From a virus (taxonomy: Duplodnaviria > Heunggongvirae > Uroviricota > Caudoviricetes), in IMG/VR virus record IMGVR_UViG_2534681833_000007, positions 1 to 11,529 of that record: a stretch of DNA of 11,529 nt. One strand, written 5' to 3'. Positions 1-11,529 of this stretch are shown piece by piece. A program made the position numbers and the translations under genes. A model generated the notes under the pieces. It was given only the letters and a program-made list of their open reading frames with translations, was not told the origin of the DNA and did no database searches. Numbering within the stretch: the first letter of the stretch is position 1; every line of letters begins with the position of its first letter.

Positions 1-904
1 ACAGCGCCCATTTGTCCACATCCGCCGCACCAAGACGTTTACCCATGCCGTAGCGCGGGTGGGTCAGCATATCCCACAGACACCAGGCCATGTTATTGCT
101 GTATGCCGGTTTAAACGTTCCGTCCCAGATACCGCTGTATTGCCGCGTCTGCGGGTTATAGTTCGACGGCACCTGCAGAATACGCCCGCGCAGATGATAA
201 TTACGGCTCACCTGCTGGCTGCCGAACTGCTCCGAATCCACCTGCACGCCGACCAGTGCCGTATTCGGGTAGCACTGTTTCACATCGATGATTTCGGTGT
301 ATGACGACCAGAGCGTTTTGTTCTGCAGCTGGTCTGTGGTGCTGTCCGGCGTCATCCTGCGCATCCGGATATTAAACGGGCGCGGCGGCAGGTTATCCAC
401 CACCACCGAGGCCAGATACTGCGAGGTGGTTTTGCCCTTAATGGTGATGTCTTTTTCCGTCACCCAGCCACCGTTACGTTGTATCTGAACCAGCAGGCGG
501 ACTTCCGATGGATTCCTGTCCCCCTTTGAGGTGGTTTCCACCAGTGCCTGCACACCGAAGGTAAAGCGCAGACGGTCGATGTTTGCCGACGTGATGGTGC
601 GGGTGATCGGCGTGTCATATTTCACTTCCGTACCCAGCACCGTCTCGGAGCCGGAGGATTCAAATCCCTCCGGCGGTGTCTGCTCCTGCTCGCCTGCCCG
701 GAACACCACCGTGACGCCGGAGATATTGGTATTCCCCTCGCTGTCCAGCACCGGCGTACTGTTCAGCAGCACGCTTTTTAATCCATCCACCGGACCTTCA
801 ACCGGACCTTCGCTGATGGCATCAATCACACTCAGCAACTGCGTGGACTTCAGGTTGTCCTTCGCTTCGCGCGGGGTATGCCCCTTACTGCTGCCTTTAC
901 CCAT
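1..904 (-). CDS. J: Host specificity / central tail fibre protein J (lambda gpJ-like), N-terminal 301 codons; 3' end lies beyond window start
   Basis: Minus-strand ATG at 904..902 (plus-strand 'cat'), translation MGKGSSKGHTPREAKDNLKSTQLLSVIDAISEGPVEGPVDGLKS... stays open to position 1 and matches my recollection of the lambda gpJ N-terminus almost residue for residue. GAGGA immediately upstream of the ATG. Not in the ORF track because no stop falls inside the window. Confidence 0.9.
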   Translation of the reverse strand, partial: MGKGSSKGHTPREAKDNLKSTQLLSVIDAISEGPVEGPVDGLKSVLLNSTPVLDSEGNTNISGVTVVFRAGEQEQTPPEGFESSGSETVLGTEVKYDTPITRTITSANIDRLRFTFGVQALVETTSKGDRNPSEVRLLVQIQRNGGWVTEKDITIKGKTTSQYLASVVVDNLPPRPFNIRMRRMTPDSTTDQLQNKTLWSSYTEIIDVKQCYPNTALVGVQVDSEQFGSQQVSRNYHLRGRILQVPSNYNPQTRQYSGIWDGTFKPAYSNNMAWCLWDMLTHPRYGMGKRLGAADVDKWAL

Positions 905-925
905 TCCTCACGCTCCATAAACGAC

Positions 926-946
926 AAAACCGCCCGGAGGCGGTTT
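926..946 (-). terminator. Terminator-like hairpin in the I-J intergenic gap (8-bp stem AAACCGCC/GGCGGTTT, 4-nt loop, then U-rich UUUUGUCGUUU on the minus-strand RNA)
   Basis: Perfect inverted repeat 927-934 / 939-946 seen directly in the sequence, between the I stop (965-967) and the J start (904). Function not demonstrated. Confidence 0.35.
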
Positions 947-964
947 CACATAAAACATTTTTCA

Positions 965-1612
965 TCAGCGACCAATCACCACAACCTGACCACCATCACC
1001 TTCATCTGCCGTGCTGATCTCCTGAGATACCACCCGCGACCCCACACGCATTTCACCGTACAGAACGGGCAGAACATTGCCCTGGGCAACCATGTTATCC
1101 AGTGACGAGAAATACGTGTTCTGTTTGCCGTTATCTGTACTGGCTGCCGTGGGCGTCCTGGCTTTCGGTGCCAGCATCTGCGCCACACCACCCAGGATCA
1201 TACTGGCCCCTGCTGCATACATACCCGATACAGCCGCGGCCCCTAGCCAGCCCACAGGGTTCCACCATGCCACCGCAATCAGCGCCGCACCCAGCACCGC
1301 CTGAAACACACCGCCACTTTTGGCCCCCTCCAGACGCGGAACGATGTGGATCACGGCACCATTTGCCAGCGGCTCATTAAGACGGGCAGACAATTCGGTT
1401 TCACCTGCATCACGCCCGGCAATCCGTACCTGATACCAGCCGTCACTCAGTTTCTGACGAAACGCCGGGATCTGCATGGCCAGCGCCCGGATGGCTTCGG
1501 CCCCCGTTTTCACACGAAGGTCGATGCGGCGGCCAAATCGTTGTAAATTCCCGTAAAGGCAGATGCGTGCCATGCCCGGTGACGCCAGAGGGAGTGTGTG
1601 CGTCGCTGCCAT
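965..1612 (-). CDS. I: Tail assembly protein I (lambda gpI-like)
   Basis: 215-aa ORF starting MAATHTLPLASPGMARICLYG... and ending ...GDGGQVVVIGR, matching recalled lambda gpI. ATG at 1612. Overlaps the 3' end of K by about 100 nt, as in lambda. Confidence 0.9.
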   Translation of the reverse strand: MAATHTLPLASPGMARICLYGNLQRFGRRIDLRVKTGAEAIRALAMQIPAFRQKLSDGWYQVRIAGRDAGETELSARLNEPLANGAVIHIVPRLEGAKSGGVFQAVLGAALIAVAWWNPVGWLGAAAVSGMYAAGASMILGGVAQMLAPKARTPTAASTDNGKQNTYFSSLDNMVAQGNVLPVLYGEMRVGSRVVSQEISTADEGDGGQVVVIGR

Positions 1613-2253
1613 TTGTCGGTATACCTCTCTCGTTTGCTCAGTTGTTCAGGAATATGGTGCAGCAGCTCGCCGTCGCCGCAGTAAATGGCGGCATGATTCG
1701 GCACCGATGAACCAAAACAGCACAGCAGCACATCGCCCGGCTGCGCCTCTGTCAGTGCGACACGGTAAAAACTAGTCGCCTCCATATTGTCAAGATAGAG
1801 ATTCTGGCCGTTACGCCACCAGTCATCCCCGCGATAAAAATCCGGCATCTCAATTTCCGCCAGATGGTATGCATCCCGGAACAGCGTGTAACAGTCCGTC
1901 ACCCCGTGCTCAAAGCGCCGCCCGGTAAGATGTGGCACACAGCGGAACTTGTGAATCGCCCCCCGGCAGACCAGCCACCACGGCAAATCACTCTGCACCT
2001 GCAGCCGCCTGTCGACCTCACTCAGCCAGGGCAGACCACCGGGGTGGCTGTGGACCAGTGCCACAACCTCCCCCTGCATCTCTGCCTGCAGCCAGTCCTC
2101 CGGCGACATCCGGAAATACGCCTCCGGCTCACCGGAGATATTCACGCAGGGAAAATATCTGTCCCCCTCCGGCGTTCTCACCACGAAGCCGCACGACTCC
2201 GCTGGCGCACATGGCCGGGCGTGCGCCAGAATCGCTGATTCTGTCTCTGTCAT
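1510..2253 (-). CDS. K: Tail tip assembly protein K (lambda gpK-like; MPN/JAMM plus NlpC/P60 domains)
   Basis: In-frame ATG at 2253, 5 nt after the L stop, gives 247 aa beginning MTETESAILAHARPCAPAESCGF... JAMM signature HSHPGGLPWLSEVD present; later Cys/His consistent with NlpC/P60. The track ORF (start 2328) begins at a GTG inside L and is probably too long; an internal ATG at 2109 would give the shorter 199-aa form. Confidence 0.85.
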   Translation of the reverse strand: MTETESAILAHARPCAPAESCGFVVRTPEGDRYFPCVNISGEPEAYFRMSPEDWLQAEMQGEVVALVHSHPGGLPWLSEVDRRLQVQSDLPWWLVCRGAIHKFRCVPHLTGRRFEHGVTDCYTLFRDAYHLAEIEMPDFYRGDDWWRNGQNLYLDNMEATSFYRVALTEAQPGDVLLCCFGSSVPNHAAIYCGDGELLHHIPEQLSKRERYTDKWQRRTHSLWRHRAWHASAFTGIYNDLAAASTFV

Positions 2254-2257
2254 GGGT

Positions 2258-2956
2258 TTACTGCGAAAGTTTGTTAATGGAAAGGTAGCCGCCAAAATTG
2301 CCGACGTTATTGCGGAACTTGCAACCACTCAGGCATTTGCTGCATTTATCCTTCGTGATATCGGACGTTGGCTGGTCATATTCATCCGCGACCGCCGGGC
2401 CATCATAACCGCACTCATCGCCGCGGTAGATCCAGGTGCAGGTGTTGGCCAGCATGATGCGCCCCGGAAAAACAGCACCATCCGTTTCCGTCGGTGTGGA
2501 CAGCACAAAAGAGGCACTGACCGCGCTCAGTTCGCTGCACTGTTCGATGCGCCAGCGGCTGATCACCTCCTGCTCCGGATCGGCGTCACTGTTTCCGTTG
2601 ACGAAGTTCACCGCATCCAGAAAACGGGCGTAAACCTTACGCCGGACCACCGTTCCGCCGACCAGACTCTGCAGATCTTCCGCCATCCCGGTGACCATGC
2701 CGTACAGATTAGAGACTTTAAGCGTTGGCCTTGCACTGGCTCCTTTGCCGTTCATCTCAAATCCGCTTCCCTGAATGGGATAAGCCTGATACTGCCGCCC
2801 CTGCCAGGTGACTGGTTCACCTTTTTCGTTCTGCTCATTACAGAAGAAATAACGATCTCCGCCGACTTCTGTCAGATCAATTTCCCAGAGCACGACCAGC
2901 GCGGATTGCTCCGTTTTAGTGCACTCATTGAGTGTTTCCTGCTGTATATCCTGCAT
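2258..2956 (-). CDS. L: Minor tail protein L (lambda gpL-like)
   Basis: 232-aa ORF MQDIQQETLNECTKTEQSALVVLWEIDLTEVGG...FGGYLSINKLSQ, near-identical to recalled lambda gpL. Its ATG (2956..2954) overlaps the M stop as TGATG. Confidence 0.92.
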   Translation of the reverse strand: MQDIQQETLNECTKTEQSALVVLWEIDLTEVGGDRYFFCNEQNEKGEPVTWQGRQYQAYPIQGSGFEMNGKGASARPTLKVSNLYGMVTGMAEDLQSLVGGTVVRRKVYARFLDAVNFVNGNSDADPEQEVISRWRIEQCSELSAVSASFVLSTPTETDGAVFPGRIMLANTCTWIYRGDECGYDGPAVADEYDQPTSDITKDKCSKCLSGCKFRNNVGNFGGYLSINKLSQ

Positions 2957-3312
2957 CAGTGAGTGACCTCTTCAAAGGTACAGTTAAAATCGGTATACAT
3001 GGTATTATCCGAAATGCTCCACTCCCTGCAGACAACCCGGACAGTCCTGTTGTGTTTTGGCGGACGCCACAAAAAAGCACGAATCCCGGCATGACGGGAT
3101 AAAAAACTGTCCAGCGCGGCACGGGAATATTCATCTGTGACACGAAATACCGGTTTAAACGTTTTCAGATCCGCATTCAGACCACCAGCCCGTCGCTGTT
3201 CATATCCGTCACCAAACTTTACCGTAATAACTGATGGCTTTCGTGTCGTCTCCATCCCCTCACGGGGGATCCAGTTAAAAACTTCAGGCTCAGGCACTGT
3301 ACAATCCTCCAT
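2956..3312 (-). CDS. M: Minor tail protein M (divergent lambda gpM homologue)
   Basis: Conserved core ...KFGDGY...AGLNA.LKT...SFL...FLW.PP... aligns with recalled lambda gpM at roughly 35-40 percent identity. Start placed at ATG 3312 (118 aa) because the lambda N-terminus (KTFRWKVKPGMD) aligns with EVFNWIPREGME upstream of the alternative ATG at 3255. The track start at 3342 is a TTG. Confidence 0.75.
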   Translation of the reverse strand: MEDCTVPEPEVFNWIPREGMETTRKPSVITVKFGDGYEQRRAGGLNADLKTFKPVFRVTDEYSRAALDSFLSRHAGIRAFLWRPPKHNRTVRVVCREWSISDNTMYTDFNCTFEEVTH

Positions 3313-6300
3313 CCCGACGCGATGACTGCATAATTGACACAACCCTGCTGTCGATCAGATCCACCAGTCCCCTGGCTGAGCGCGCATCTATCTCGCCATT
3401 GCTCCCTTGATTCTGAATGCTGATGTGATACACGGGAGAATAAACAAATCCACCGCCACCATTCACATTTCCAATGGCCCTGACCCCAAGAGAGCCGTCC
3501 GCTGCCCGTGTCAGTGGCATGATTGCTTCAGGCCCGGCCTCGCCCATCAACCCGGCACCTTTCGCAAAAGCAAAATACGTCGGTGTATCCACAATAGTGT
3601 TACTGTAAGCACTCAGATTTGCCGATGTGTAAACACCACCTTTTGCGTTTGCCACTGCCCCCGAAATCCATCCGCCGACCGTACCAAGCCACCCTCCGGC
3701 ACCGGAGAGTGATTTCAGTCCGTTAACAATGGCTGCATTCATCAGAATTTTTGAAACTTCCCGGAGAACTGAACTCCCCCAGTTCCTCCAGTCCACAACA
3801 TTCCCGGCCAGTGCATCGGAAATATTTGATACCAGCCCGTCCATCGTGGAAACGACAGCATCTGCCGCCTGTGAAGCATAATCGGTGGCACTGTCTGCCC
3901 AGTTGGTCAGTCCCTCCTGGAGTCCGGCATTCCAGTTATTACGTAAAGCATCGGCCTTTGCATAATAATCCTGCTGATCGCTGAGACGCTCTTCCAGATA
4001 TTTTTTATTCAGTTCTTTCTCCTGTTTCCACAGAGCTTCTTCAATTTCTCCGGCCTGATACTGTCTCAGCAGCTCGTTATTTTTCTGCTCAAACGCCTGC
4101 CGGATACTCCACATTTCCTGGAGTCGTTCACGCATCCGTGAGCCTTCACCATATCCCAGCAACTGCGCTTCGTCAGATGCCCGGGCACTGGCATTACTGT
4201 CCGCCAGACTGCTCTCATACGCAGCAAGCTGCTCACGAATCTTTTTCTGGTCGATGAGTGCTGCATTCTGCAAAAGCGTTTTTTTCTGCGCTTCTGACAG
4301 GGTTGATAATTCGCCCTGACTGACCTGATATTTCATCTTAGCCAGTTCAGTATTCTGCCCTGCCAGTGCTATTTGTTCTTTTTGCTGTTTAATCAGCCGT
4401 TTATAAATATCTTCTGTTTTTTCCGCTTCGGTCTTTTTATGCGCTTTGGGTTTATTTGCCTGGTTATTTCGCCAGGCATCCAGTGAGTTATTGATATAAT
4501 TCTGTCTGGCTGTCTGATACGCCTCTCCCACAAAGCCGAGATCATCCGCAGCATAACCCAGGCGGGCACGCTCACGGGCTTCCCCCTTCAGGCGGGACAG
4601 AGCCAGTTCGCGCTCACTGTTATTCAGTGCGGCCTGCTGTTTATCATCCAGGGTTGCCTGTGGTAGCCGTAACGGTACATTCACCAGCCCCTGTCGCTGC
4701 TGAAGTAATTCATTACCGAGCCCGAGAAGGCGATTAAACTCGGTATGCTGCCCATTCATGATCAACAGGGACTGATACGCTTTGTTTTGTTCCGCGGCCT
4801 GTTGACGGATCAACGCCACCCGTCGCTCCTCCAGCCCGGCAAGCACATCCTGAATGGATTGCGCTTTGCCCTGCATTTGTGTGAGACGGGACTGTTCAAC
4901 TGCCAGTTGATTTGTTGCTTCTGCAAGCCCTTCTGTGACAGTTTTTACCGACGTCATGTGGTTAATCATAAAACCGTTATCGGTTGTCCAGCCCGGGTTT
5001 GCCAGCACATACTGATAGCCAGCAATTTTTTCCTGTAAGGATTTAATCTTACTTTTCTGCTCGTCAATTAACCTGTTTTGCTCATCAAGTGCCTGCCGCG
5101 TCTTTTCCTCATTATCTGACGCTTCAGGAAGCGACATTGCCGACGTTTTCTGGCGAATTTCGTCGATTGTTGCGGCATACTGGCGTGCAGATTCTCTGGC
5201 CTGCTCCTGATTCTGATACATCGTGTACCAGGCCGTCGCCCCCAGCATGACGAGTCCCGGCACACCACCAACCAACCCCAGCGCACCACTTAACAGACGA
5301 CTCCCCACTGACGTGACAGTATTCAGCGTTGTCTGTGCCGCTGTTCTGGCCGCAATATTACGGGTAAGTGACGCCTGGGCAGCTGTCAGCTTCGCTTCTG
5401 CTGCGGCCTGCCTTTCGGTACCGCGAGCAGCAACAACCGCCTGTTGCGCACGATAAACCGCCGCACGCGCCCTGGCGGTTGCTATCTGTGTCCCCCGAAG
5501 TTGCGCTTCAGCAAGAGCCACTTCTTTTCTGGCTGCAGTAATTAATCCGGCAGTTGCAGATCCAGCAGACGACGCCATATTGCCAAAATATCGGGCTACC
5601 CCGACGGCAACCAGTGCGCCAGCTGCAGCAGCCACGGTATCCATATTGTCTGCAACACCATTCAACACCCCGGTGAGTGTCTTTGTCACTCCGCTTGCCT
5701 CGTTCGCACCACCAACCCAGGCCATAAAGGCGTTTTCAACTTTGGTTGCAGAGGATGAAACAGTATCAGGCATTGCTGCATATTCATCACGCAACGCCCC
5801 AAGCTGACTAATCAGTGCAGGAACAACCTTATCGGCGGTCAGTTTTCCGTTATCCGCCATGGCCTTCAGATCCTTACGGGCAACACCCATTCCCGCAGCC
5901 AGCGCACGAATAACACGATCGCCGTTCTCATTCACAGAGTTAAATTCTTCACCGCGCAGCACTCCCTGCGCCAGTGCCTGACTGAACTGCGTGATCACCG
6001 AACTGGCTTCTGCTGTACTGGCACCGGATAATTTCAGGCCCGTAGAGATCGCCTCGGTGACTTTCAGTACCTCCTCAGAACTGTAGCCATACTCCCGCAT
6101 GGAAGCTGCAGAGCGGGCAAAAAGGCTGGCGTTATCAGAAAACGCCGTTCCCGTTCTCTGGCTGATTGCCATTAATTCACGTTGTGATACCTGAAAATCA
6201 TCACTGGACTGTGAAGCCTGCTTCAGACGGGCATTTACTGAATTCCACTCATCGGCGAGAGAAATAAGATGACCGGTAGCAAAAGCTCCGGCAAATGCCC

Positions 6301-6523
6301 CCGCCATATTCAGTGCCGAAGATTTAGCTATATTTATCTGATCCGTCACTTCTGCCAGTGCACGCCGCATTTCACGGGATGCAGCAGCGGACTGCCGGCC
6401 TCCGTTCTGCATGGTACGGTAGTAATCCTGCCCCATACGCGAAGCCCGGGAGATCTCTGACTGGAATGACCGGGAATTTGCCGAGATTTTAATAATCAGT
6501 TCACGTAATGTCGCCACACTCAT
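3290..6523 (-). CDS. Tail tape measure protein (1077 aa)
   Basis: Very long ORF placed between the chaperone pair and M; Ala/Gln-rich helical central region typical of tape measure proteins, Gly-rich hydrophobic C-terminal segment. ATG at 6523 preceded by GGAGA. Longer than lambda gpH (853 aa as I recall) and not obviously co-linear with it. Confidence 0.9.
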   Translation of the reverse strand: MSVATLRELIIKISANSRSFQSEISRASRMGQDYYRTMQNGGRQSAAASREMRRALAEVTDQINIAKSSALNMAGAFAGAFATGHLISLADEWNSVNARLKQASQSSDDFQVSQRELMAISQRTGTAFSDNASLFARSAASMREYGYSSEEVLKVTEAISTGLKLSGASTAEASSVITQFSQALAQGVLRGEEFNSVNENGDRVIRALAAGMGVARKDLKAMADNGKLTADKVVPALISQLGALRDEYAAMPDTVSSSATKVENAFMAWVGGANEASGVTKTLTGVLNGVADNMDTVAAAAGALVAVGVARYFGNMASSAGSATAGLITAARKEVALAEAQLRGTQIATARARAAVYRAQQAVVAARGTERQAAAEAKLTAAQASLTRNIAARTAAQTTLNTVTSVGSRLLSGALGLVGGVPGLVMLGATAWYTMYQNQEQARESARQYAATIDEIRQKTSAMSLPEASDNEEKTRQALDEQNRLIDEQKSKIKSLQEKIAGYQYVLANPGWTTDNGFMINHMTSVKTVTEGLAEATNQLAVEQSRLTQMQGKAQSIQDVLAGLEERRVALIRQQAAEQNKAYQSLLIMNGQHTEFNRLLGLGNELLQQRQGLVNVPLRLPQATLDDKQQAALNNSERELALSRLKGEARERARLGYAADDLGFVGEAYQTARQNYINNSLDAWRNNQANKPKAHKKTEAEKTEDIYKRLIKQQKEQIALAGQNTELAKMKYQVSQGELSTLSEAQKKTLLQNAALIDQKKIREQLAAYESSLADSNASARASDEAQLLGYGEGSRMRERLQEMWSIRQAFEQKNNELLRQYQAGEIEEALWKQEKELNKKYLEERLSDQQDYYAKADALRNNWNAGLQEGLTNWADSATDYASQAADAVVSTMDGLVSNISDALAGNVVDWRNWGSSVLREVSKILMNAAIVNGLKSLSGAGGWLGTVGGWISGAVANAKGGVYTSANLSAYSNTIVDTPTYFAFAKGAGLMGEAGPEAIMPLTRAADGSLGVRAIGNVNGGGGFVYSPVYHISIQNQGSNGEIDARSARGLVDLIDSRVVSIMQSSRRDGGLYSA

Positions 6524-6533
6524 TCTCCGGACG

Positions 6534-6554
6534 AAAAAAACCGCCGAAGCGGTT
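6534..6554 (-). terminator. Terminator-like hairpin just upstream of the tape measure start (stem AACCGC/GCGGUU, UUCG loop, then U5 on the minus-strand RNA)
   Basis: Inverted repeat 6539-6544 / 6549-6554 with loop 6545-6548 and a 7-A run at 6534-6540 on the plus strand, lying in the 40-nt gap between the T stop (6563) and the tape measure ATG (6523). Confidence 0.3.
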
Positions 6555-6562
6555 ATGTTGAC

Positions 6563-7236
6563 TCACTGAGACACTATTAAAAGCGCGTTTTCCAGTCCGG
6601 CAAATGGATCTGAGACGCCTTCTGTCTGCTCTTGTTCCCACTGAAGAAGCGCATCATTCAGTGGGACTTTGACACCCTGCGCACCGTAAACCGCAGAAAC
6701 TATCTGGGCAGCCCGGATATCAGCCCGCTCGTCACCCAGCGGGCTGAACCTGTCAAATTCTGCCCACATCATGATTTCTGATGCGGACATTTCCCGGCGT
6801 AACTCTGACAATGTGCGCCCCATCCTGAGCGCCAGCATCATCAGAAAACGCATCCCCGGAAGCGCTACTTTTTTTTAACCTCGCCGGCATCACTGATCAG
6901 TTCCAGAGACTGCCGAAGAAGCCGCGCATGCACCGGGCCATACACGGCAATCACCTGTTCACGATCATCCTCTGAAAATACAGGTTGCAGTCCGGTATCA
7001 CACAGAACATCAATGAATAGTTCAACATCTGCCTCCAGATTTCGGCGGGCGCGCTCCGCAACGGATAACGGTGTCTCATCATCTTTTGCTTTAACGATCT
7101 CCTGCCAGCGCAACCAGGCTTCTGCAGAAGGTTCCCGTAATACAACCGTTGCCCCTTCCCATTCAGGCACATCAACAGTTTTATGGCGAAACCCCGACAT
7201 CGTTGCCAGTGCCAGATTGCGGATATTTTTAGTCAT
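6563..7236 (-). CDS. Tail assembly chaperone G-T fusion, made by -1 programmed ribosomal frameshift near the 3' end of G
   Basis: The 6563-6853 ORF (T part) is in the -1 frame relative to G (codon phase checked: G codons start at coordinate 1 mod 3, T codons at 2 mod 3). G ends ...GAG GTT AAA AAA AAG TAG, so a slip on A AAA AAG reads on as ...KK-VALPG-MRFLMMLAL... This is the conserved G/GT arrangement found immediately upstream of tape measure genes. Confidence 0.75.
6865..7236 (-). CDS. Tail assembly chaperone (lambda gpG-equivalent)
   Basis: ORF directly upstream of the tape measure gene, ending in the slippery site. Start chosen at ATG 7236 (GAGGAT about 7 nt upstream); an alternative ATG at 7251 overlaps the major tail protein stop (TAATG) and would add MRIDV. 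Confidence 0.8.
   Translation of the reverse strand: MTKNIRNLALATMSGFRHKTVDVPEWEGATVVLREPSAEAWLRWQEIVKAKDDETPLSVAERARRNLEADVELFIDVLCDTGLQPVFSEDDREQVIAVYGPVHARLLRQSLELISDAGEVKKK
6868..6874 (-). promoter_or_regulatory. -1 frameshift slippery heptamer A AAA AAG (G to G-T)
   Basis: Plus-strand C + T8 run at 6868-6876; on the minus strand the heptamer is in X XXY YYZ phase with the G frame, and the G stop TAG follows immediately. Confidence 0.7.
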
Positions 7237-7250
7237 CACATCTATCCTCA

Positions 7251-7955
7251 TTAACTGACGGTAACAGTGCAGGAAGTGGAGGTCACCTTGTTAACAGGGC
7301 TTGCTGAATCAGAAATCTCGCAGGTATACGCACCGGCATCACCTGATGCTGCTGATGCCTTACTGAATGTTGCCGCCGTCTGTCCGGAAACAGGAGAACT
7401 ACCTTTCTTCCAGACATAAGAATAAGGCGGCACACCACCGGCAGCCTCAACCACCATTTCGAGTTTCGCTCCGGCAGAAACCTGCAGCGTGCTGTTTAAA
7501 TCGACCTTCACTTTCAGCGGCTCTGTCGTCAGCACAGGTTTACCTTTCAGGCGCAGGGAAAACGTTGCAGCCACAACACCATTAGTTCCTGCAGACCAGG
7601 TATGCTGACGCACCTCTGCCATAAAGGTAAATCCGTTGCCTGACGGAAAAATAACTTTAAAGCCATACGTGGTGTCATTGTCATAGGCACTGCGCAACGC
7701 GTTCTGGGCAGCATTGAGGTAAAAGTTGCCTGACATGGAAATCTCTGACGCGGCACCAAGGCCGTTAATATTTTCCTGCTCAACAGAACACAGCGTGGTG
7801 ACATCAATATCCTGCTTTTGTCCTGCGGTAAACTGCACCTCTTTGATTGTACAGCTCAGGCCAAGATAGCTGGCAGAATCCAGGGTTTCTGCTGTTACCG
7901 GTGCAGACGAAATCATAATTTTCGTCAGTTGCGAACGCTCAAAATTAGAGGACAT
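7251..7955 (-). CDS. Major tail (tube) protein with C-terminal Ig-like domain
   Basis: Sits in the position of lambda V (after the terminator-like gene, before the chaperone pair). 234 aa from ATG 7955 with AGGAGA 6 nt upstream. C-terminal ~90 aa (...GGVPPYSYVWKKGSS...GAYTCEISD...CTVTVS) has an Ig-fold-like pattern. Not recognisably lambda gpV by sequence. The track start at 8006 reads through the hairpin and U-tract and is probably wrong. Confidence 0.8.
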   Translation of the reverse strand: MSSNFERSQLTKIMISSAPVTAETLDSASYLGLSCTIKEVQFTAGQKQDIDVTTLCSVEQENINGLGAASEISMSGNFYLNAAQNALRSAYDNDTTYGFKVIFPSGNGFTFMAEVRQHTWSAGTNGVVAATFSLRLKGKPVLTTEPLKVKVDLNSTLQVSAGAKLEMVVEAAGGVPPYSYVWKKGSSPVSGQTAATFSKASAASGDAGAYTCEISDSASPVNKVTSTSCTVTVS

Positions 7956-7969
7956 ACTCGTCTCCTGAA

Positions 7970-7994
7970 AATAAAAAACCCGCCAGCGGCGGGT
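7970..7994 (-). terminator. Intrinsic-terminator-like hairpin upstream of the major tail protein gene (stem CCCGCC/GGCGGG, then UUUUUUAUUUU on the minus-strand RNA)
   Basis: All-GC 6-bp stem 7979-7984 / 7988-7993 (one further A-U pair 7978/7994), 3-nt loop, followed on the minus strand by a U-run (plus-strand A-run 7971-7978). Lies between the upstream gene stop (8015) and the RBS/ATG at 7955. Confidence 0.4.
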
Positions 7995-8014
7995 GGGTAA
8001 AATCATTAACGACC

Positions 8015-8359
8015 TCAGGCTATTACCTGAAATTCAAGCGTGGCTCTGCTCAGACGGGAATCAGGATCATAACCCTGAGTTTTAGAAATAACGGAGGGTG
8101 CAAGTTGCCTTACCGCATCAAGCGCCTGCTCACGGATATCATCTGCGTCATCAGGTACTGTTGCCCAGACATCGATCTGCACGGTAATTCTGGATTCAGC
8201 CTGACCATCAAGCACATCAGACGCAGTGTCAGACACCACAGAAAATACCAGCCATGGCGGAGATACCGCAGGCTTTCCCTCCGTCAGCGGGACCACATAA
8301 GGATAAACCTGTCCTCCGGCCAGTTGAGACAGCAGGGAATACAGTGTGGTCTCTCTCAT
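8015..8359 (-). CDS. Tail terminator / tail-component protein (lambda U-position; family not identified from sequence)
   Basis: 114-aa ORF. Its ATG at 8359 overlaps the upstream stop (ATGA). Called by position between the gp10-like gene and the major tail protein gene. Confidence 0.7.
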   Translation of the reverse strand: MRETTLYSLLSQLAGGQVYPYVVPLTEGKPAVSPPWLVFSVVSDTASDVLDGQAESRITVQIDVWATVPDDADDIREQALDAVRQLAPSVISKTQGYDPDSRLSRATLEFQVIA

Positions 8360-8802
8360 TTACTTAAGACCTCATCAATAGCCTGATTCATTCGCTGTAT
8401 GGCAATCTGTGCTGCCAGTTCCTCTGTCGTATCGAAAGCCGGGCGAATGAACGGATGCGCGGGCATGTTTATCGTTCCCAGCTCCACAAAGCGCCAGTAA
8501 AACGCATTTCGGGGATCACTGGCTTTCATGCTGTTATCACTGTTTCCGGTTCGCAGGTTCCGTCCACGAATGTGGACACCCGAGATAATTTCCCCCCGAC
8601 GCTTTGAACGCTGAGTGAGAACAACCACATTTTTCTTCAGTTTCCCGGTTCGCTCCGGCGCACGTTCAACAACTGCATCCCGCATAACTTCAGCACCGGC
8701 ACGGGTGGCATCGCGCAGTACCTTATTGTTTTCTGCCCTGCTGAGCGTCTCCAGATCCCGTGCAATATCCGCCAGACCTGAAAAATCAAGACTGAAATCC
8801 AT
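8356..8802 (-). CDS. Tail completion / head-tail joining protein, HK97 gp10-like (lambda Z-position)
   Basis: 148 aa from ATG 8802 (AAGGGGA about 7 nt upstream; the track start at 8805 is a GTG). Contains ...MPAHPFIRPAFD..., which I associate with the HK97 gp10 family. Its ATG overlaps the stop of the truncated upstream remnant (TGATG). Confidence 0.75.
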   Translation of the reverse strand: MDFSLDFSGLADIARDLETLSRAENNKVLRDATRAGAEVMRDAVVERAPERTGKLKKNVVVLTQRSKRRGEIISGVHIRGRNLRTGNSDNSMKASDPRNAFYWRFVELGTINMPAHPFIRPAFDTTEELAAQIAIQRMNQAIDEVLSK

Positions 8803-8922
8803 CACACATTCCCCTTCTGAGAACAGAGTATCTCAAGCCGTGTGGCACGAGCATCCGGTATCGGCGGACCGTCTATACTCAGAATCGCGCCTTTGAATGC
8901 ACCAGTCAGCACTTTCAGACAT
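8802..8922 (-). pseudogene. 3' remnant (39 codons plus stop) of a phage morphogenesis gene whose 5' part is replaced by IS2
   Basis: Minus-strand frame is open from the IS2 boundary (8922) to a TGA at 8804..8802, translating CLKVLTGAFKGAILSIDGPPIPDARATRLEILCSQKGNV*. The stop overlaps the next gene's ATG in the coupled fashion seen for the rest of the operon. No start codon or N-terminal part exists on this side of IS2. Confidence 0.5.
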
Positions 8923-8963
8923 TAGACTGGCCCCCTGAATCTCCAGACAACCAATATCACTTA
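8923..8963 (+). repeat. IS2 left terminal inverted repeat (IRL)
   Basis: Imperfect inverted repeat with 10213-10253; shared blocks GCCCC...TCCAGACA...TATCACTTA seen directly. Confidence 0.8.
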
Positions 8964-9013
8964 TTTAAGTGATAGTCTTAATACTAGTTTTTAGACTAGT
9001 CATTGGAGAGCAG

Positions 9014-9379
9014 ATGATTGATGTCTTAGGACCGGAGAAACGCAGACGGCGTACTACACAGGAAAAGATCGCTATTGTTCAGCAGAGTTTTGAACCGGGA
9101 ATGACAGTCTCCCTTGTTGCCCGGCAACACGGTGTGGCAGCCAGCCAGTTATTTCTCTGGCGCAAGCAATACCAGGAGGGAAGTCTTACTGCTGTGGCCG
9201 CAGGAGAACAGGTCGTTCCTGCCTCTGAACTTGCTGCCGCCATGAAGCAGATTAAAGAACTCCAGCGCCTGCTCGGCAAAAAAACGATGGAAAATGAACT
9301 CCTTAAAGAAGCCGTTGAATATGGGCGTGCAAAAAAGTGGATAGCGCACGCGCCCTTATTGCCCGGGGATGGGGAGTAA
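9014..9379 (+). CDS. insC: IS2 OrfA (InsC), HTH transposase-regulator component
   Basis: ATG 9014 with GGAGAG upstream; 121 aa [56 protein letters not shown]... matches recalled IS2 InsC. The track start at 8969 is an upstream extension. Confidence 0.92.
9331..9337 (+). promoter_or_regulatory. IS2 orfA-orfB -1 frameshift heptamer A AAA AAG
   Basis: AAAAAAG at 9331-9337 is in X XXY YYZ phase with orfA (codons GCA AAA AAG); orfB is in the -1 frame and begins at this point. Confidence 0.7.
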
Positions 9380-10242
9380 GCTTAGTCAGCCGTTGTCTCC
9401 GGGTGTCGCGTGCGCAGTTGCACGTCATTCTCAGACGAACCGATGACTGGAAAGATGGTCGCCGCAGCCGTCACTCAGATGATACGGATGTGCTTCTCCG
9501 TATACACCATGTTATCGGAGAGCTGCCCACATATGGTTATCGTCGGGTATGGGCGCTGCTTCGCAGACAGGCCGAACTTGATGGTATGCCTGCGATCAAT
9601 GCCAAACGTATTTACCGGATCATGCGCCAGAATGCGCTGTTGCTTGAGCGAAAACCCGCTGTACCGCCATCGAAACGGGCACATACCGGCAGAGTGGCTG
9701 TGAAAGAAAGTAATCAGCGATGGTGCTCTGACGGGTTCGAGTTCCGCTGTGATAACGGAGAAAAACTGCGAGTCACGTTCGCGCTGGACTGCTGTGACCG
9801 TGAGGCACTGCACTGGGCGGTCACTACGGGCGGCTTCAACAGTGAAACAGTACAGGACGTCATGCTGGGAGCGGTGGAACGCCGTTTCGGCAACGAGCTT
9901 CCGGCGTCTCCAGTAGAGTGGCTGACGGATAATGGTTCATGCTACCGGGCTAATGAAACACGGCAGTTTGCCCGGATGTTGGGGCTTGAACCGAAGAACA
10001 CGGCGGTGCGGAGTCCGGAGAGTAACGGCATAGCAGAGAGCTTCGTGAAAACGATAAAGCGTGACTACATCAGTGTCATGCCCAAACCAGACGGGTTAAC
10101 GGCAGCAAAGAACCTTGCAGAGGCATTCGAGCATTATAACGAATGGCATCCGCATAGTGCACTGGGTTATCGCTCGCCACGGGAATATCTACGGCAGCAA
10201 GCCAGTAATGGGTTAAGTGATAACAGGTGTCTGGAAATATAG
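9337..10242 (+). CDS. insD: IS2 OrfB (InsD), DDE transposase catalytic part; normally expressed as an OrfAB fusion by -1 frameshift
   Basis: 301-aa ORF (GTG at 9337) ...[29 protein letters not shown]...[18 protein letters not shown]..., matching recalled IS2 InsD closely; appears full length. Confidence 0.9.
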
Positions 10243-10253
10243 GGGCAAATCCA
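10213..10253 (+). repeat. IS2 right terminal inverted repeat (IRR)
   Basis: The reverse complement TGGATTTGCCCCTATATTTCCAGACACCTGTTATCACTTAA pairs with IRL. Confidence 0.8.
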
Positions 10254-10651
10254 GGCAAATCCTTTACGTTACTCTCTGATGACTTCTTATATTTATAATA
10301 CCAATCAGACAGCCTTATCCCATCGGTGATATCAGTCTCCTCCTCGCCAGGAACGGGCTGACTCACTGTAACCACCTCCGAAAACAACTCTGCAATTATC
10401 AGAACGCTAGTTTTCCCCTTGTCTCACGAAAGTCCTCCCTCCTTTATCGCGCGTGCGTGCGGAAGCATCTTTTCGCAACAACCACCCGGGATTCCGCTAC
10501 GGCTCTGCCATCGCAATCCCCCCGTTTATCTCCGGACAGCCACATTCCCGATTATTTTTTACGTTTCTCCCCGGTTGTTATGCCAGTGAAGGTGGCGCGC
10601 TGTTTTCATGACCACACCGGCTGGTTTAACAACATCCGGAGGAACATTCTC

Positions 10652-10858
10652 ATGGCTACCCCTGTTTCGCTGATGGATGACCAGATGGTCGACATGGCGT
10701 TTATCACTCAACTTACCGGCTTAACCGATAAGTGGTTTTACAAACTCATCAAAGATGGGGGCTTTCCTGCCCCCATCAAAATGGGGCGCAGCTCCCGCTG
10801 GCTGAAAAGTGAAGTGGAAGCCTGGCTGCAGGCGCGTATTGCACAGCCCCGTCCGTAA
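10652..10858 (+). CDS. AlpA-family phage/island regulatory protein (small HTH, excisionase-like)
   Basis: ATG 10652 with GGAGG 8 nt upstream; 68 aa MATPVSLMDDQMVDMAFITQLTGLTDKWFYKLIKDGGFPAPIKMGRSSRWLKSEVEAWLQARIAQPRP. Size and motif resemble AlpA-like proteins of P4/CP4-57-type integrative elements. The track ORF from 10457 is an upstream extension with no RBS. Confidence 0.75.
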   Translation: MATPVSLMDDQMVDMAFITQLTGLTDKWFYKLIKDGGFPAPIKMGRSSRWLKSEVEAWLQARIAQPRP

Positions 10859-10952
10859 TTTCTGACCGTTATCCGTTCACCCGCAGCAGACGTAATCTCC
10901 GGCCTGCCGGCGGCATTCTGCTGCCTGTTATATCCCCGTGAGGAATATGAAA

Positions 10953-11529
10953 ATGAAACAACAGTATCAGACCCGCTACGAATGGCTCCACGAAAGCTAC
11001 CAGAAATGGCTGACCGGCTTCACCCGGCACGCCGTATCCTGGGGCGTGTGTCATCCGAATATCTACTACTTCCATAATCTGACGCCCGGTTGGGTGTCAT
11101 TCAATGGTGAAAAACCGGAGATTGCCATCGTACCCCAGAGCCTGCACCGGCTGATTTATGGCCCTGACAAACGGGCCACGCCGCCCCTGGATGATGATCT
11201 GATAGTGAATTTATGCACCAGTGAACATCTGCTGGTTCATCATCCGATGCTGGAAGGCATTCTCCTGTCTGAATGTGAACGTCTGAGGCAGCGTTCTCTG
11301 GCAAATAAACTGATCAGCCTCTTCCGTCAGTTTGGTGGCACGGAGTTGCGCCTCAAACTGGTCTGGCTTTGCTGGCTTGATTTAATGACCGGAAACAGCC
11401 TTGACGACTGGACAGAGAATCTGAAACGGAAATCAGAAAAAGAGCTGGAGGAATGGATCATCAACCGTCAGAAGCAGAGCGCAGCACTGACGGATCTGAT
11501 GGATCAGTACGTGCTCCTGTCATACCGCA
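10953..11529 (+). CDS. Hypothetical protein, 5' part only (at least 192 codons); continues beyond window end
   Basis: Open frame with no stop from ATG 10947 / ATG 10953 to the window end; GAGGA at 10940-10944 gives better spacing to 10953. Translation MK(MK)QQYQTRYEWLHESYQKWLTGFTRHAVSWGVCHPNIYYFHNL... Not in the ORF track because it has no stop in the window. I do not recognise the family. Confidence 0.55.
   Translation, partial: MKQQYQTRYEWLHESYQKWLTGFTRHAVSWGVCHPNIYYFHNLTPGWVSFNGEKPEIAIVPQSLHRLIYGPDKRATPPLDDDLIVNLCTSEHLLVHHPMLEGILLSECERLRQRSLANKLISLFRQFGGTELRLKLVWLCWLDLMTGNSLDDWTENLKRKSEKELEEWIINRQKQSAALTDLMDQYVLLSYR

Follow-up and report, generated by a model that had tools for sequence, protein, structure and literature searches.

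A candidate intrinsic terminator before the major tail gene of HK97-type tail modules and its conservation among relatives

Why should a hairpin with the shape of a strong transcription terminator stand inside a phage late operon, directly in front of the gene for the most-needed tail protein? The question is raised by a short intergenic gap in a stretch of 11,529 nucleotides of tailed-phage DNA (Caudoviricetes; positions 1 to 11,529 of IMG/VR record IMGVR_UViG_2534681833_000007; this whole stretch is hereafter called the window). An initial annotation, made from the letters of the sequence, had noticed a CCCGCC/GGCGGG stem ahead of the ribosome binding site of the major tail gene, and had offered two readings of it: a terminator that is tolerated because the operon is read through under late antitermination, or a stabiliser of the downstream message.

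Sequence, fold and coding status of the hairpin

Read on the minus strand, the region runs from GCC TGA (8017-8015) at the end of the tail terminator gene through ggtcgttaatgattttaccc, ACCCGCC, GCT, GGCGGGT, TTTTTATTTT, a single c, AGGAGA, and cgagt to the ATG of the major tail gene (7955-7953), and the gap between the stop codon and this ATG (7956-8014) measures exactly 59 nt (Table 1). The stem described in the initial annotation was borne out in both coordinates and sequence, and PHROGs returned the same two neighbours that had been named for it, a tail terminator and a major tail protein. The surrounding genes form an HK97-type tail module on the minus strand, which also holds the G/T chaperone pair and M-, L-, K-, and I-like genes (PHROGs, Pfam), and the major tail protein of the window is 72% identical to HK97 gp12 (tblastn).

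Table 1. Coordinates of the hairpin, its immediate surroundings, and the other features of the window discussed in the text
Feature	Position	Strand	Description	Evidence
Third, weaker terminator-like module	925..945	-	AAACCGCC-UCCG-GGCGGUUU and U-rich UGUCGUUU, then GGAG and ATG	Covariance-model match 913-945, E 2.3e-03; scan
Tape-measure gene	6523-3290	-		PHROGs, Pfam
Second terminator-like module	6539..6554	-	AACCGC-UUCG-GCGGUU and U-tract, in the 39-nt gap 6524-6562 before the tape-measure gene	Scan; covariance-model match 6517-6572, E 8.8e-05
Major tail (tube) protein gene (downstream gene)	7251..7955	-	HK97 gp12-like, 234 aa, C-terminal Ig domain	phrog_158, E 3.9e-108; Pfam Ig_2
Ribosome binding region of the major tail gene	7956..7967	-	AGGAGA 7966-7961, 5 nt before ATG	Sequence
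U-tract	7968..7977	-	UUUUUAUUUU, 0 nt after the stem	Sequence
Candidate terminator hairpin	7978..7994	-	ACCCGCC / GCU loop / GGCGGGU; 7 pairs, 6 G-C and a closing A-U	Sequence, fold, scan, covariance model
Untranslated spacer	7995..8014	-	20 nt from tail-terminator stop to hairpin; holds the non-conserved ATG 8006	Sequence
Tail terminator / tail completion protein gene (upstream gene)	8015..8359	-	HK97 gp11-like, 114 aa	PHROG 347/78; Pfam PF11367, 44.1 bits
Neck/tail-completion gene	8805-8356	-	HK97 gp10-like	PHROGs, Pfam
IS2-type insertion sequence	8923..10253	+		Megablast coverage breaks at 8922 and 10253; Pfam HTH_Tnp_1, rve

Counted from GGCGGG, the tail of the hairpin consists of six U, one A, and four U, and 22 nt separate the end of the hairpin from the major tail ATG. 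The free energy of 7965-7998, which the initial annotation had put forward as a check on its proposal, came to -12.6 kcal/mol compared with -5.9 ± 2.1 for dinucleotide shuffles (z = -3.15; 2 of 200 shuffles were as stable), and the identical hairpin was recovered when it was folded in a 91-nt context. A scan of the window detected 18 terminator-like sites versus 10.9 ± 3.3 expected from shuffles, among which the hairpin before the major tail gene ranked first, with the most stem pairs and the most G-C pairs. A covariance model derived from sites ahead of major tail genes matched this hairpin at 7953-8012 on the minus strand (E 3.9e-07), and the Rfam covariance models, applied at their gathering score, had no match anywhere in the window. 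The features by which intrinsic terminators are recognised are present, namely a G+C-rich stem within the range of about 5-14 bp, a loop within that of 3-8 nt, and an adjoining U-tract on the transcribed strand; the element also lies outside translated sequence, beginning 20 nt past the TGA at 8017-8015. A bidirectional terminator or an antisense role was considered and rejected, since the hairpin has no U-tract on the plus strand and no terminator-like site lies in antisense orientation within the phage part of the window.

When the longest open reading frame is taken mechanically, the major tail gene starts at ATG 8006 and would include the hairpin, which would then be coding sequence. We rejected this possibility because that start is not conserved, with an in-frame start as far upstream found in only 25 of the 111 distinct loci that we compared, and because the N-termini of homologues (n = 10, with identities from 100% down to 36%) align at a downstream methionine (MSS/MSA/MTS) and fit the downstream ATG; the hairpin is therefore regarded as non-coding. 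In the GenBank records of phages Evi (L001, 9800-10555) and YYZ-2008 (L003, 2932-3717), the coding sequence of the major tail protein runs through the hairpin from an upstream ATG, and judging from these alignments the starts in both records are probably placed too far upstream. This has practical value for the annotation of major tail gene starts in some GenBank records. A separate 6-bp hairpin, UCAGGU-AAUA-GCCUGA (8015-8030, minus strand), includes the stop codon of the tail terminator gene, and similar stop-codon-spanning hairpins (GGTCAC...GTGACC) are found in YYZ-2008, FSL SP-016, and phiE125, and not in all relatives.

Conservation among relatives and the HK97 orthologue

The comparison covered 169 homologous loci, including 10 phage records, 78 loci from species-representative genomes, and 80 IMG/VR contigs, which reduced to 111 distinct upstream regions. 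A hairpin was scored as present if its stem had 5 or more pairs, 4 or more of them G-C, if its loop measured 3-8 nt, and if the 8 nt adjoining the stem on the 3' side contained 5 or more T. By this detector, a hairpin with its U-tract ended 10-40 nt before the major tail ATG in 108 of the 111 distinct loci, at tail protein identities down to 39%, which is far beyond chance given the background of about 0.4-0.5 terminator-like sites per kb; over the sense strand of these loci as a whole, the detector scored 0.52 sites per kb. Within Enterobacterales, the carriers include Escherichia, Klebsiella, Enterobacter, Serratia, Yersinia, Proteus, Providencia, Morganella, Xenorhabdus, and Pantoea, and beyond this order the element was found in Halomonas/Vreelandella/Salinicola (Halomonadaceae) and in Burkholderia phage phiE125. 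The three exceptions comprise weaker hairpins in two loci (L034 and L150) and a decayed copy in a third, L103 (IMG/VR UViG_2562617113_000015). This last locus is a close relative, the only one with such decay, and may be a degenerating prophage; its hairpin has decayed about 50 nt before the ATG (CCCACCGCTGTCGGA vs CCCGCCGCTGGCGGG) and the flanks are intact.

The median gap from stop codon to ATG was 59 nt, as in the window, and the median distance from stop codon to hairpin was 19 nt (93 loci); where it was measured, the end of the hairpin lay 18-26 nt before the major tail ATG, with a median of 22. Free energies of the hairpin ranged from -7 to -15.5 kcal/mol across loci, and 45 distinct pairs of stem arms were recovered, CCCGCC/GGCGGG, GACCGCC/GGCGGTT, AGCCACC/GGTGGTT, AAGCTGC/GCAGCTT, and GACCGTC/GACGGTT among them. 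Because plain MAFFT alignment of the spacers misregisters hairpins with 3-nt and 4-nt loops, covariation was assessed on covariance-model alignments and presence by the alignment-free test above. In the covariance-model alignment of 81 distinct sequences upstream of the major tail gene, 88% of cells were paired versus 69% in shuffles; such alignments are fitted to the structure, so that pairing percentages are somewhat inflated, and the presence test by the detector constitutes independent evidence. Double-sided changes in the same 81 sequences numbered 98 versus 22.6 ± 4 in shuffles, a count matched by none of 1000, and the covariation score over 141 model matches was 0.549 versus 0.158 (0 of 500 shuffles) and collapsed once the pairing partners were slid.

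Conservation extends past the stem. The T columns that follow it were invariant or at least 90% conserved in a 62-sequence alignment, the GGAG column was conserved in the spacer alignment (A2), and the U-tract abuts GGAG in essentially all loci. UNCG tetraloops accounted for 41 of 81 loops, and across the related loci 250 terminator-like sites were found on the sense strand compared with 75 on the antisense strand. Terminators would be expected to show such a conserved U-tract and UNCG loops, whereas hairpins that merely stabilise RNA would not. That a predicted terminator has been kept at one junction, with compensatory changes in its stem, across several bacterial families shows that it is under selection.

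The hairpin does not pose a fresh puzzle, as the orthologous site is already annotated in HK97. In the HK97 record (AF069529), positions 6692-6719, which lie between gene 11 and the gene for the major tail subunit (gene 12), are marked as a regulatory feature of the type "terminator, putative", and the sequence there reads AACCCGCC-AGAT-GGCGGGTT-TTCTTTTT, then AGGAGA and ATG. The HK97 site and that of the window have orthologous flanking genes, near-equal arms (AACCCGCC...GGCGGGTT in HK97), a U-tract, AGGAGA, and an ATG about 20 nt on, whereas they differ in the loop (AGAU in HK97, GCU in the window), the length of the stem (9 versus 7 pairs), and the distance from the end of the hairpin to the ATG (20 versus 22 nt). 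With the same flanking orthologues, the same position, and a structure conserved through compensatory changes, the hairpin of the window is, by sequence comparison, the orthologue of the putative terminator between HK97 genes 11 and 12. The element is therefore already known and not new, being annotated in HK97 and belonging to a known class.

Further putative terminators are annotated in HK97: one overlaps the end of gene 3, two follow gene 5 (capsid) and gene 12, respectively, one precedes gene I, and one comes after moron gene 15, immediately ahead of the tape-measure gene H. The hairpin directly after gene 12 distinguishes HK97 from the window lineage, which has none there. In the literature that we searched, no termination, read-through, or 3'-end data were found for the element or for any orthologue. 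For the window itself the hairpin matters little, as it is the expected HK97 orthologue in an IS2-decapitated prophage remnant; its strict conservation is a modest addition, and the element offers a well-defined and easily mutated test case for the purpose of phage intra-operon terminators.

Late-operon context and competing explanations

No Q gene or late promoter was found upstream on the same strand within the 11.5-kb window. The late operon can be read instead in phage Evi, whose genome is intact and which is 97.6% identical to the window over the neck-to-major-tail segment (7251-8805). There a Q antiterminator (Pfam PF03589, 170.8 bits, E 6.9e-51) lies upstream of the operon, the late genes follow on a single strand in the order Q, lysis genes, terminase, portal, protease, capsid, connectors, and tail, and strong terminator-like hairpins follow the capsid gene and precede both the major tail gene and the tape-measure gene. 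Directly upstream of the lysis-head-tail genes, an annotated antitermination protein is also present in ECP1 (50% identity) and in Halomonas phage H4907 (39%). Q together with a late operon is accordingly seen in Evi and, by annotation only, in ECP1 and the Halomonas phage, and is missing from the window. The first reading of the initial annotation, a terminator tolerated through late antitermination, is partly supported: hairpin geometry, covariation, the invariant U-tract, the Q gene of Evi, and the annotations in ECP1 and the Halomonas phage are all in its favour, and what tells against it is that the window has neither Q nor late promoter and that its operon has been cut by IS2.

We consider it fairly probable (roughly 60%) that the hairpin is a genuine Rho-independent terminator, which stops unmodified RNA polymerase, is bypassed by Q-modified polymerase, and serves as a default-off barrier for the tail genes; termination, bypass through Q, and the selective benefit are all matters that we infer. 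Mechanistically, the nascent RNA would fold into the 7-bp G+C-rich hairpin followed by the U-tract, and unmodified polymerase would release its transcript at about 7972-7970, where 3' ends are expected from terminator geometry. In an intact phage, the late operon (lysis, terminase, head, connector, and tail genes) would be read by polymerase that had been modified by Q at the late promoter, and such polymerase would pass terminators with ordinary stems, leading to expression of the tail genes in lytic growth. The tail tube gene and all expression downstream of it would in this way be made dependent on Q, and transcription that arrives from elsewhere (e.g., spurious promoters, moron promoters, and read-in from the host or an insertion sequence) would be halted. 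As a by-product, RNA that ends or is processed at the hairpin would acquire a nuclease-resistant 3' end.

The dimensions of the hairpin are compatible with bypass. In the average terminator of E. coli the stem measures 7-8 bp and the loop 3-4 nt, stems longer than 14 bp resist processive antitermination in the conAn system, and complexes modified by Q are generally said to bypass terminators whatever their sequence (PMC10325885). By analogy with the conAn study, the 7-bp stem of the window would fall outside the class that is expected to stop an antiterminated polymerase.

Several observations fit less well with a default-off barrier. Generic insulation leaves unexplained both the strict conservation of one particular junction and the constant spacing of 18-26 nt, phage lambda has a gap of only 7 nt between its U and V genes, indicating that the element is not required by Q-driven late operons generally, and the annotation in HK97 reads "putative". 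Presence in 108 of the 111 loci combined with a fixed geometry (about 19 nt past the stop codon and about 22 nt before the start, with the U-tract fused to the ribosome binding region) suggests something more than a generic insulator. It is conceivable, as a speculative and rather unlikely extension, that a dual-purpose "terminator-restart" module has been selected at the head-tail/tail boundary of HK97-type phages. If this were so, one version would have the tail tube protein kept silent in lysogens, its leaky expression being costly and perhaps sensed by host defences, and in another version processing would yield a separately stabilised and highly translated tail-tube message in lytic growth.

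The most tenable alternative to a default-off barrier, itself unlikely, is a partial attenuator, in which Q-modified polymerase would sometimes terminate and the terminators of the operon would step down its transcripts, helping to set protein stoichiometry. Besides the present site, the series would comprise the one that follows the capsid gene and those that precede the tape-measure gene and J. Terminator-like sites do stand at fixed operon junctions in many relatives, Evi included, partial termination is among the two roles proposed for the terminators of phage L (PMC8022706), and attenuation is plausible for the sites after capsid and tail genes. At the junction studied here, however, a step-down just before the most-needed tail protein, and after connector genes whose products are used in about a dozen copies, would oppose the stoichiometric need, and the sequence-indifferent bypass described for Q-modified complexes (PMC10325885) argues against attenuation as well.

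A role in RNA stability or processing is a rather improbable explanation. Following endonucleolytic cleavage, the hairpin would cap the 3' end of the upstream RNA or the 5' end of the tail-gene message and thereby shape their half-lives. RNase E prefers A/U-rich single-stranded sequence, and sequence of this kind flanks the hairpin; HK97 and many relatives also have hairpins after the major tail and capsid genes, where a 3' cap would stabilise the most-needed messages. The present hairpin lies upstream of the highly expressed gene, however, and as a 3' cap would protect the low-copy connector genes, and in the window lineage no hairpin follows the major tail gene. Its strictly conserved adjoining U-tract is needed for termination and not for blocking an exonuclease. 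A 5' stabiliser would have to lie at the extreme 5' end of the message, which would presuppose an additional processing event. The second reading of the initial annotation, a stabiliser of the downstream message, found no support on similar grounds, since a 3' hairpin guards the RNA upstream of it, the conserved U-tract is needless for an exonuclease barrier, and an in silico break of the stem leaves predicted access to the ribosome binding site unchanged.

The same stem-break result bears on a translation-initiation module, which we regard as decidedly improbable and in which the U-rich tract would be a landing or standby site for the ribosome (protein S1) and the hairpin would insulate the ribosome binding site, providing uncoupled, high-level initiation. 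Such a module would account for the tight spacing from hairpin to start (18-26 nt, median 22) and for the U-tract abutting GGAG, and the junction is among the few in the operon without translational coupling. When the stem was broken in silico, however, the predicted access of positions -15 to +6 in 76 loci did not differ significantly (0.488 versus 0.474, p 0.09, partition function); the same module also precedes the low-copy tape-measure and J genes, and a minimal spacer in a compact genome would give constant spacing too. It is highly improbable that the hairpin has no function, whether as a chance palindrome, a neutral relic, or a shared sequence marking a recombination joint between head-tail and tail genes: the stem is short, one close relative (L103) has a decayed copy, and identity to HK97 of 51% in gp11 versus 80% in the N-terminal domain of the major tail protein is as expected near a mosaic joint, but chance and neutral relic are excluded by the presence in 108 of 111 loci, the 45 stems, and the significant compensatory change.

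Known systems, the IS2-truncated copy and other modules of the tail operon

Intra-operon terminators are common in the late operons of phages, and they have been described in several other systems. Phage L (P22-like) similarly has a predicted intrinsic terminator inside a single-promoter, antitermination-dependent late operon, whereas its terminator follows procapsid/head genes, its structural module is that of an unrelated podovirus, and the study reported no analysis of how far it is conserved (PMC8022706). For the authors of that study, intra-operon terminators are no peculiarity of this phage and have roles yet to be established; they proposed either partial termination or the stopping of spurious, non-antiterminated transcription (PMC8022706). 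In the lambdoid class that includes phage L, intra-operon terminators are passed by Q/gp23-modified polymerase. The conjugation operons of the pLS20 type likewise contain many internal terminators of ordinary length that are passed only when the transcription complex has been modified at the main promoter (PMC8955417, PMC10325885), and the suppression of spurious transcription by internal terminators together with processive antitermination was demonstrated for these operons (PMC8955417). The conAn system of pLS20 differs in that it uses an RNA/protein antiterminator pair instead of Q, belongs to another host phylum and another kind of element, and has been proven experimentally, whereas the element in the window is predicted.

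Closer in gene content is the U-V junction of phage lambda, which joins genes of the same functions (tail terminator and major tail protein) in a Q-dependent late operon, yet has no hairpin in its 7-nt gap. Because of this, the element is viewed as a trait of HK97-type tail modules and not of lambdoid late operons generally. Bacillus phage SPP1 also has predicted stem-loop terminators in a siphovirus late cluster near its tail tube gene (PMC6316719). One of them (11,255-11,304) follows the tail tube gene 17.1*, another (12,009-12,049) lies towards the end of the chaperone gene, inside 17.5*, and neither precedes the tail tube gene (PMC6316719). The published positions thus contradict the idea that the SPP1 terminators flank that gene. 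Q-type antitermination is not known in SPP1.

The copy in the window has been truncated. Similarity to intact prophages ends at 8922, and the cut made by the IS2-type element lies 117 nt upstream of the neck gene; the end at 8923 is what we take to be the IS2 inverted repeat. The DNA beyond IS2 (10254-11529) holds an AlpA-like open reading frame (10457-10858), and in E. coli ETEC1747 the DNA to the right of IS2 lies 2.4 Mb from these tail genes, which points to either an IS2-mediated rearrangement or a chimeric assembly. Since IS2 has severed the operon from its late promoter, the hairpin of the window is probably an inherited relic, which could do no more than block read-through that arrives from IS2.

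Two further modules of hairpin, U-tract, Shine-Dalgarno sequence, and start codon were detected in the tail operon (Table 1), the weaker of which lies in the gap between the I-like gene (stop at 965) and the J-like start (about 904). Together with the module before the major tail gene, they occupy all gaps of more than 30 nt between genes of the tail operon, with the other junctions overlapping or nearly contiguous. Among relatives, terminator-like sites peak at about 1.5-1.8 kb upstream of the major tail start (after the capsid gene), at the start itself, and at +400-500 and +1200-1500. Major tail genes without the C-terminal Ig domain (about 155 aa; e.g., L007, L008, L072, and L073) usually have a hairpin right after the gene, 400-500 nt past its start; the Ig-bearing gene of the window overlaps the chaperone start at 7251 and is followed by no hairpin.

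Two minor observations concern the genes next to the second module. The first ATG of the tape-measure gene (6523) lies 1 nt after GGAG, and an in-frame GTG at 6517, with a more usual spacing of 7 nt (window 6515-6528, minus strand), may be the real start of this gene. The chaperone open reading frames (6563-7251, minus strand) encode a 128-aa G-like and a 96-aa T-like product, both of which match PHROG 14766, a family that spans the two, as expected for a conserved product of programmed -1 frameshifting such as that annotated in HK97 (gp13/gp14).
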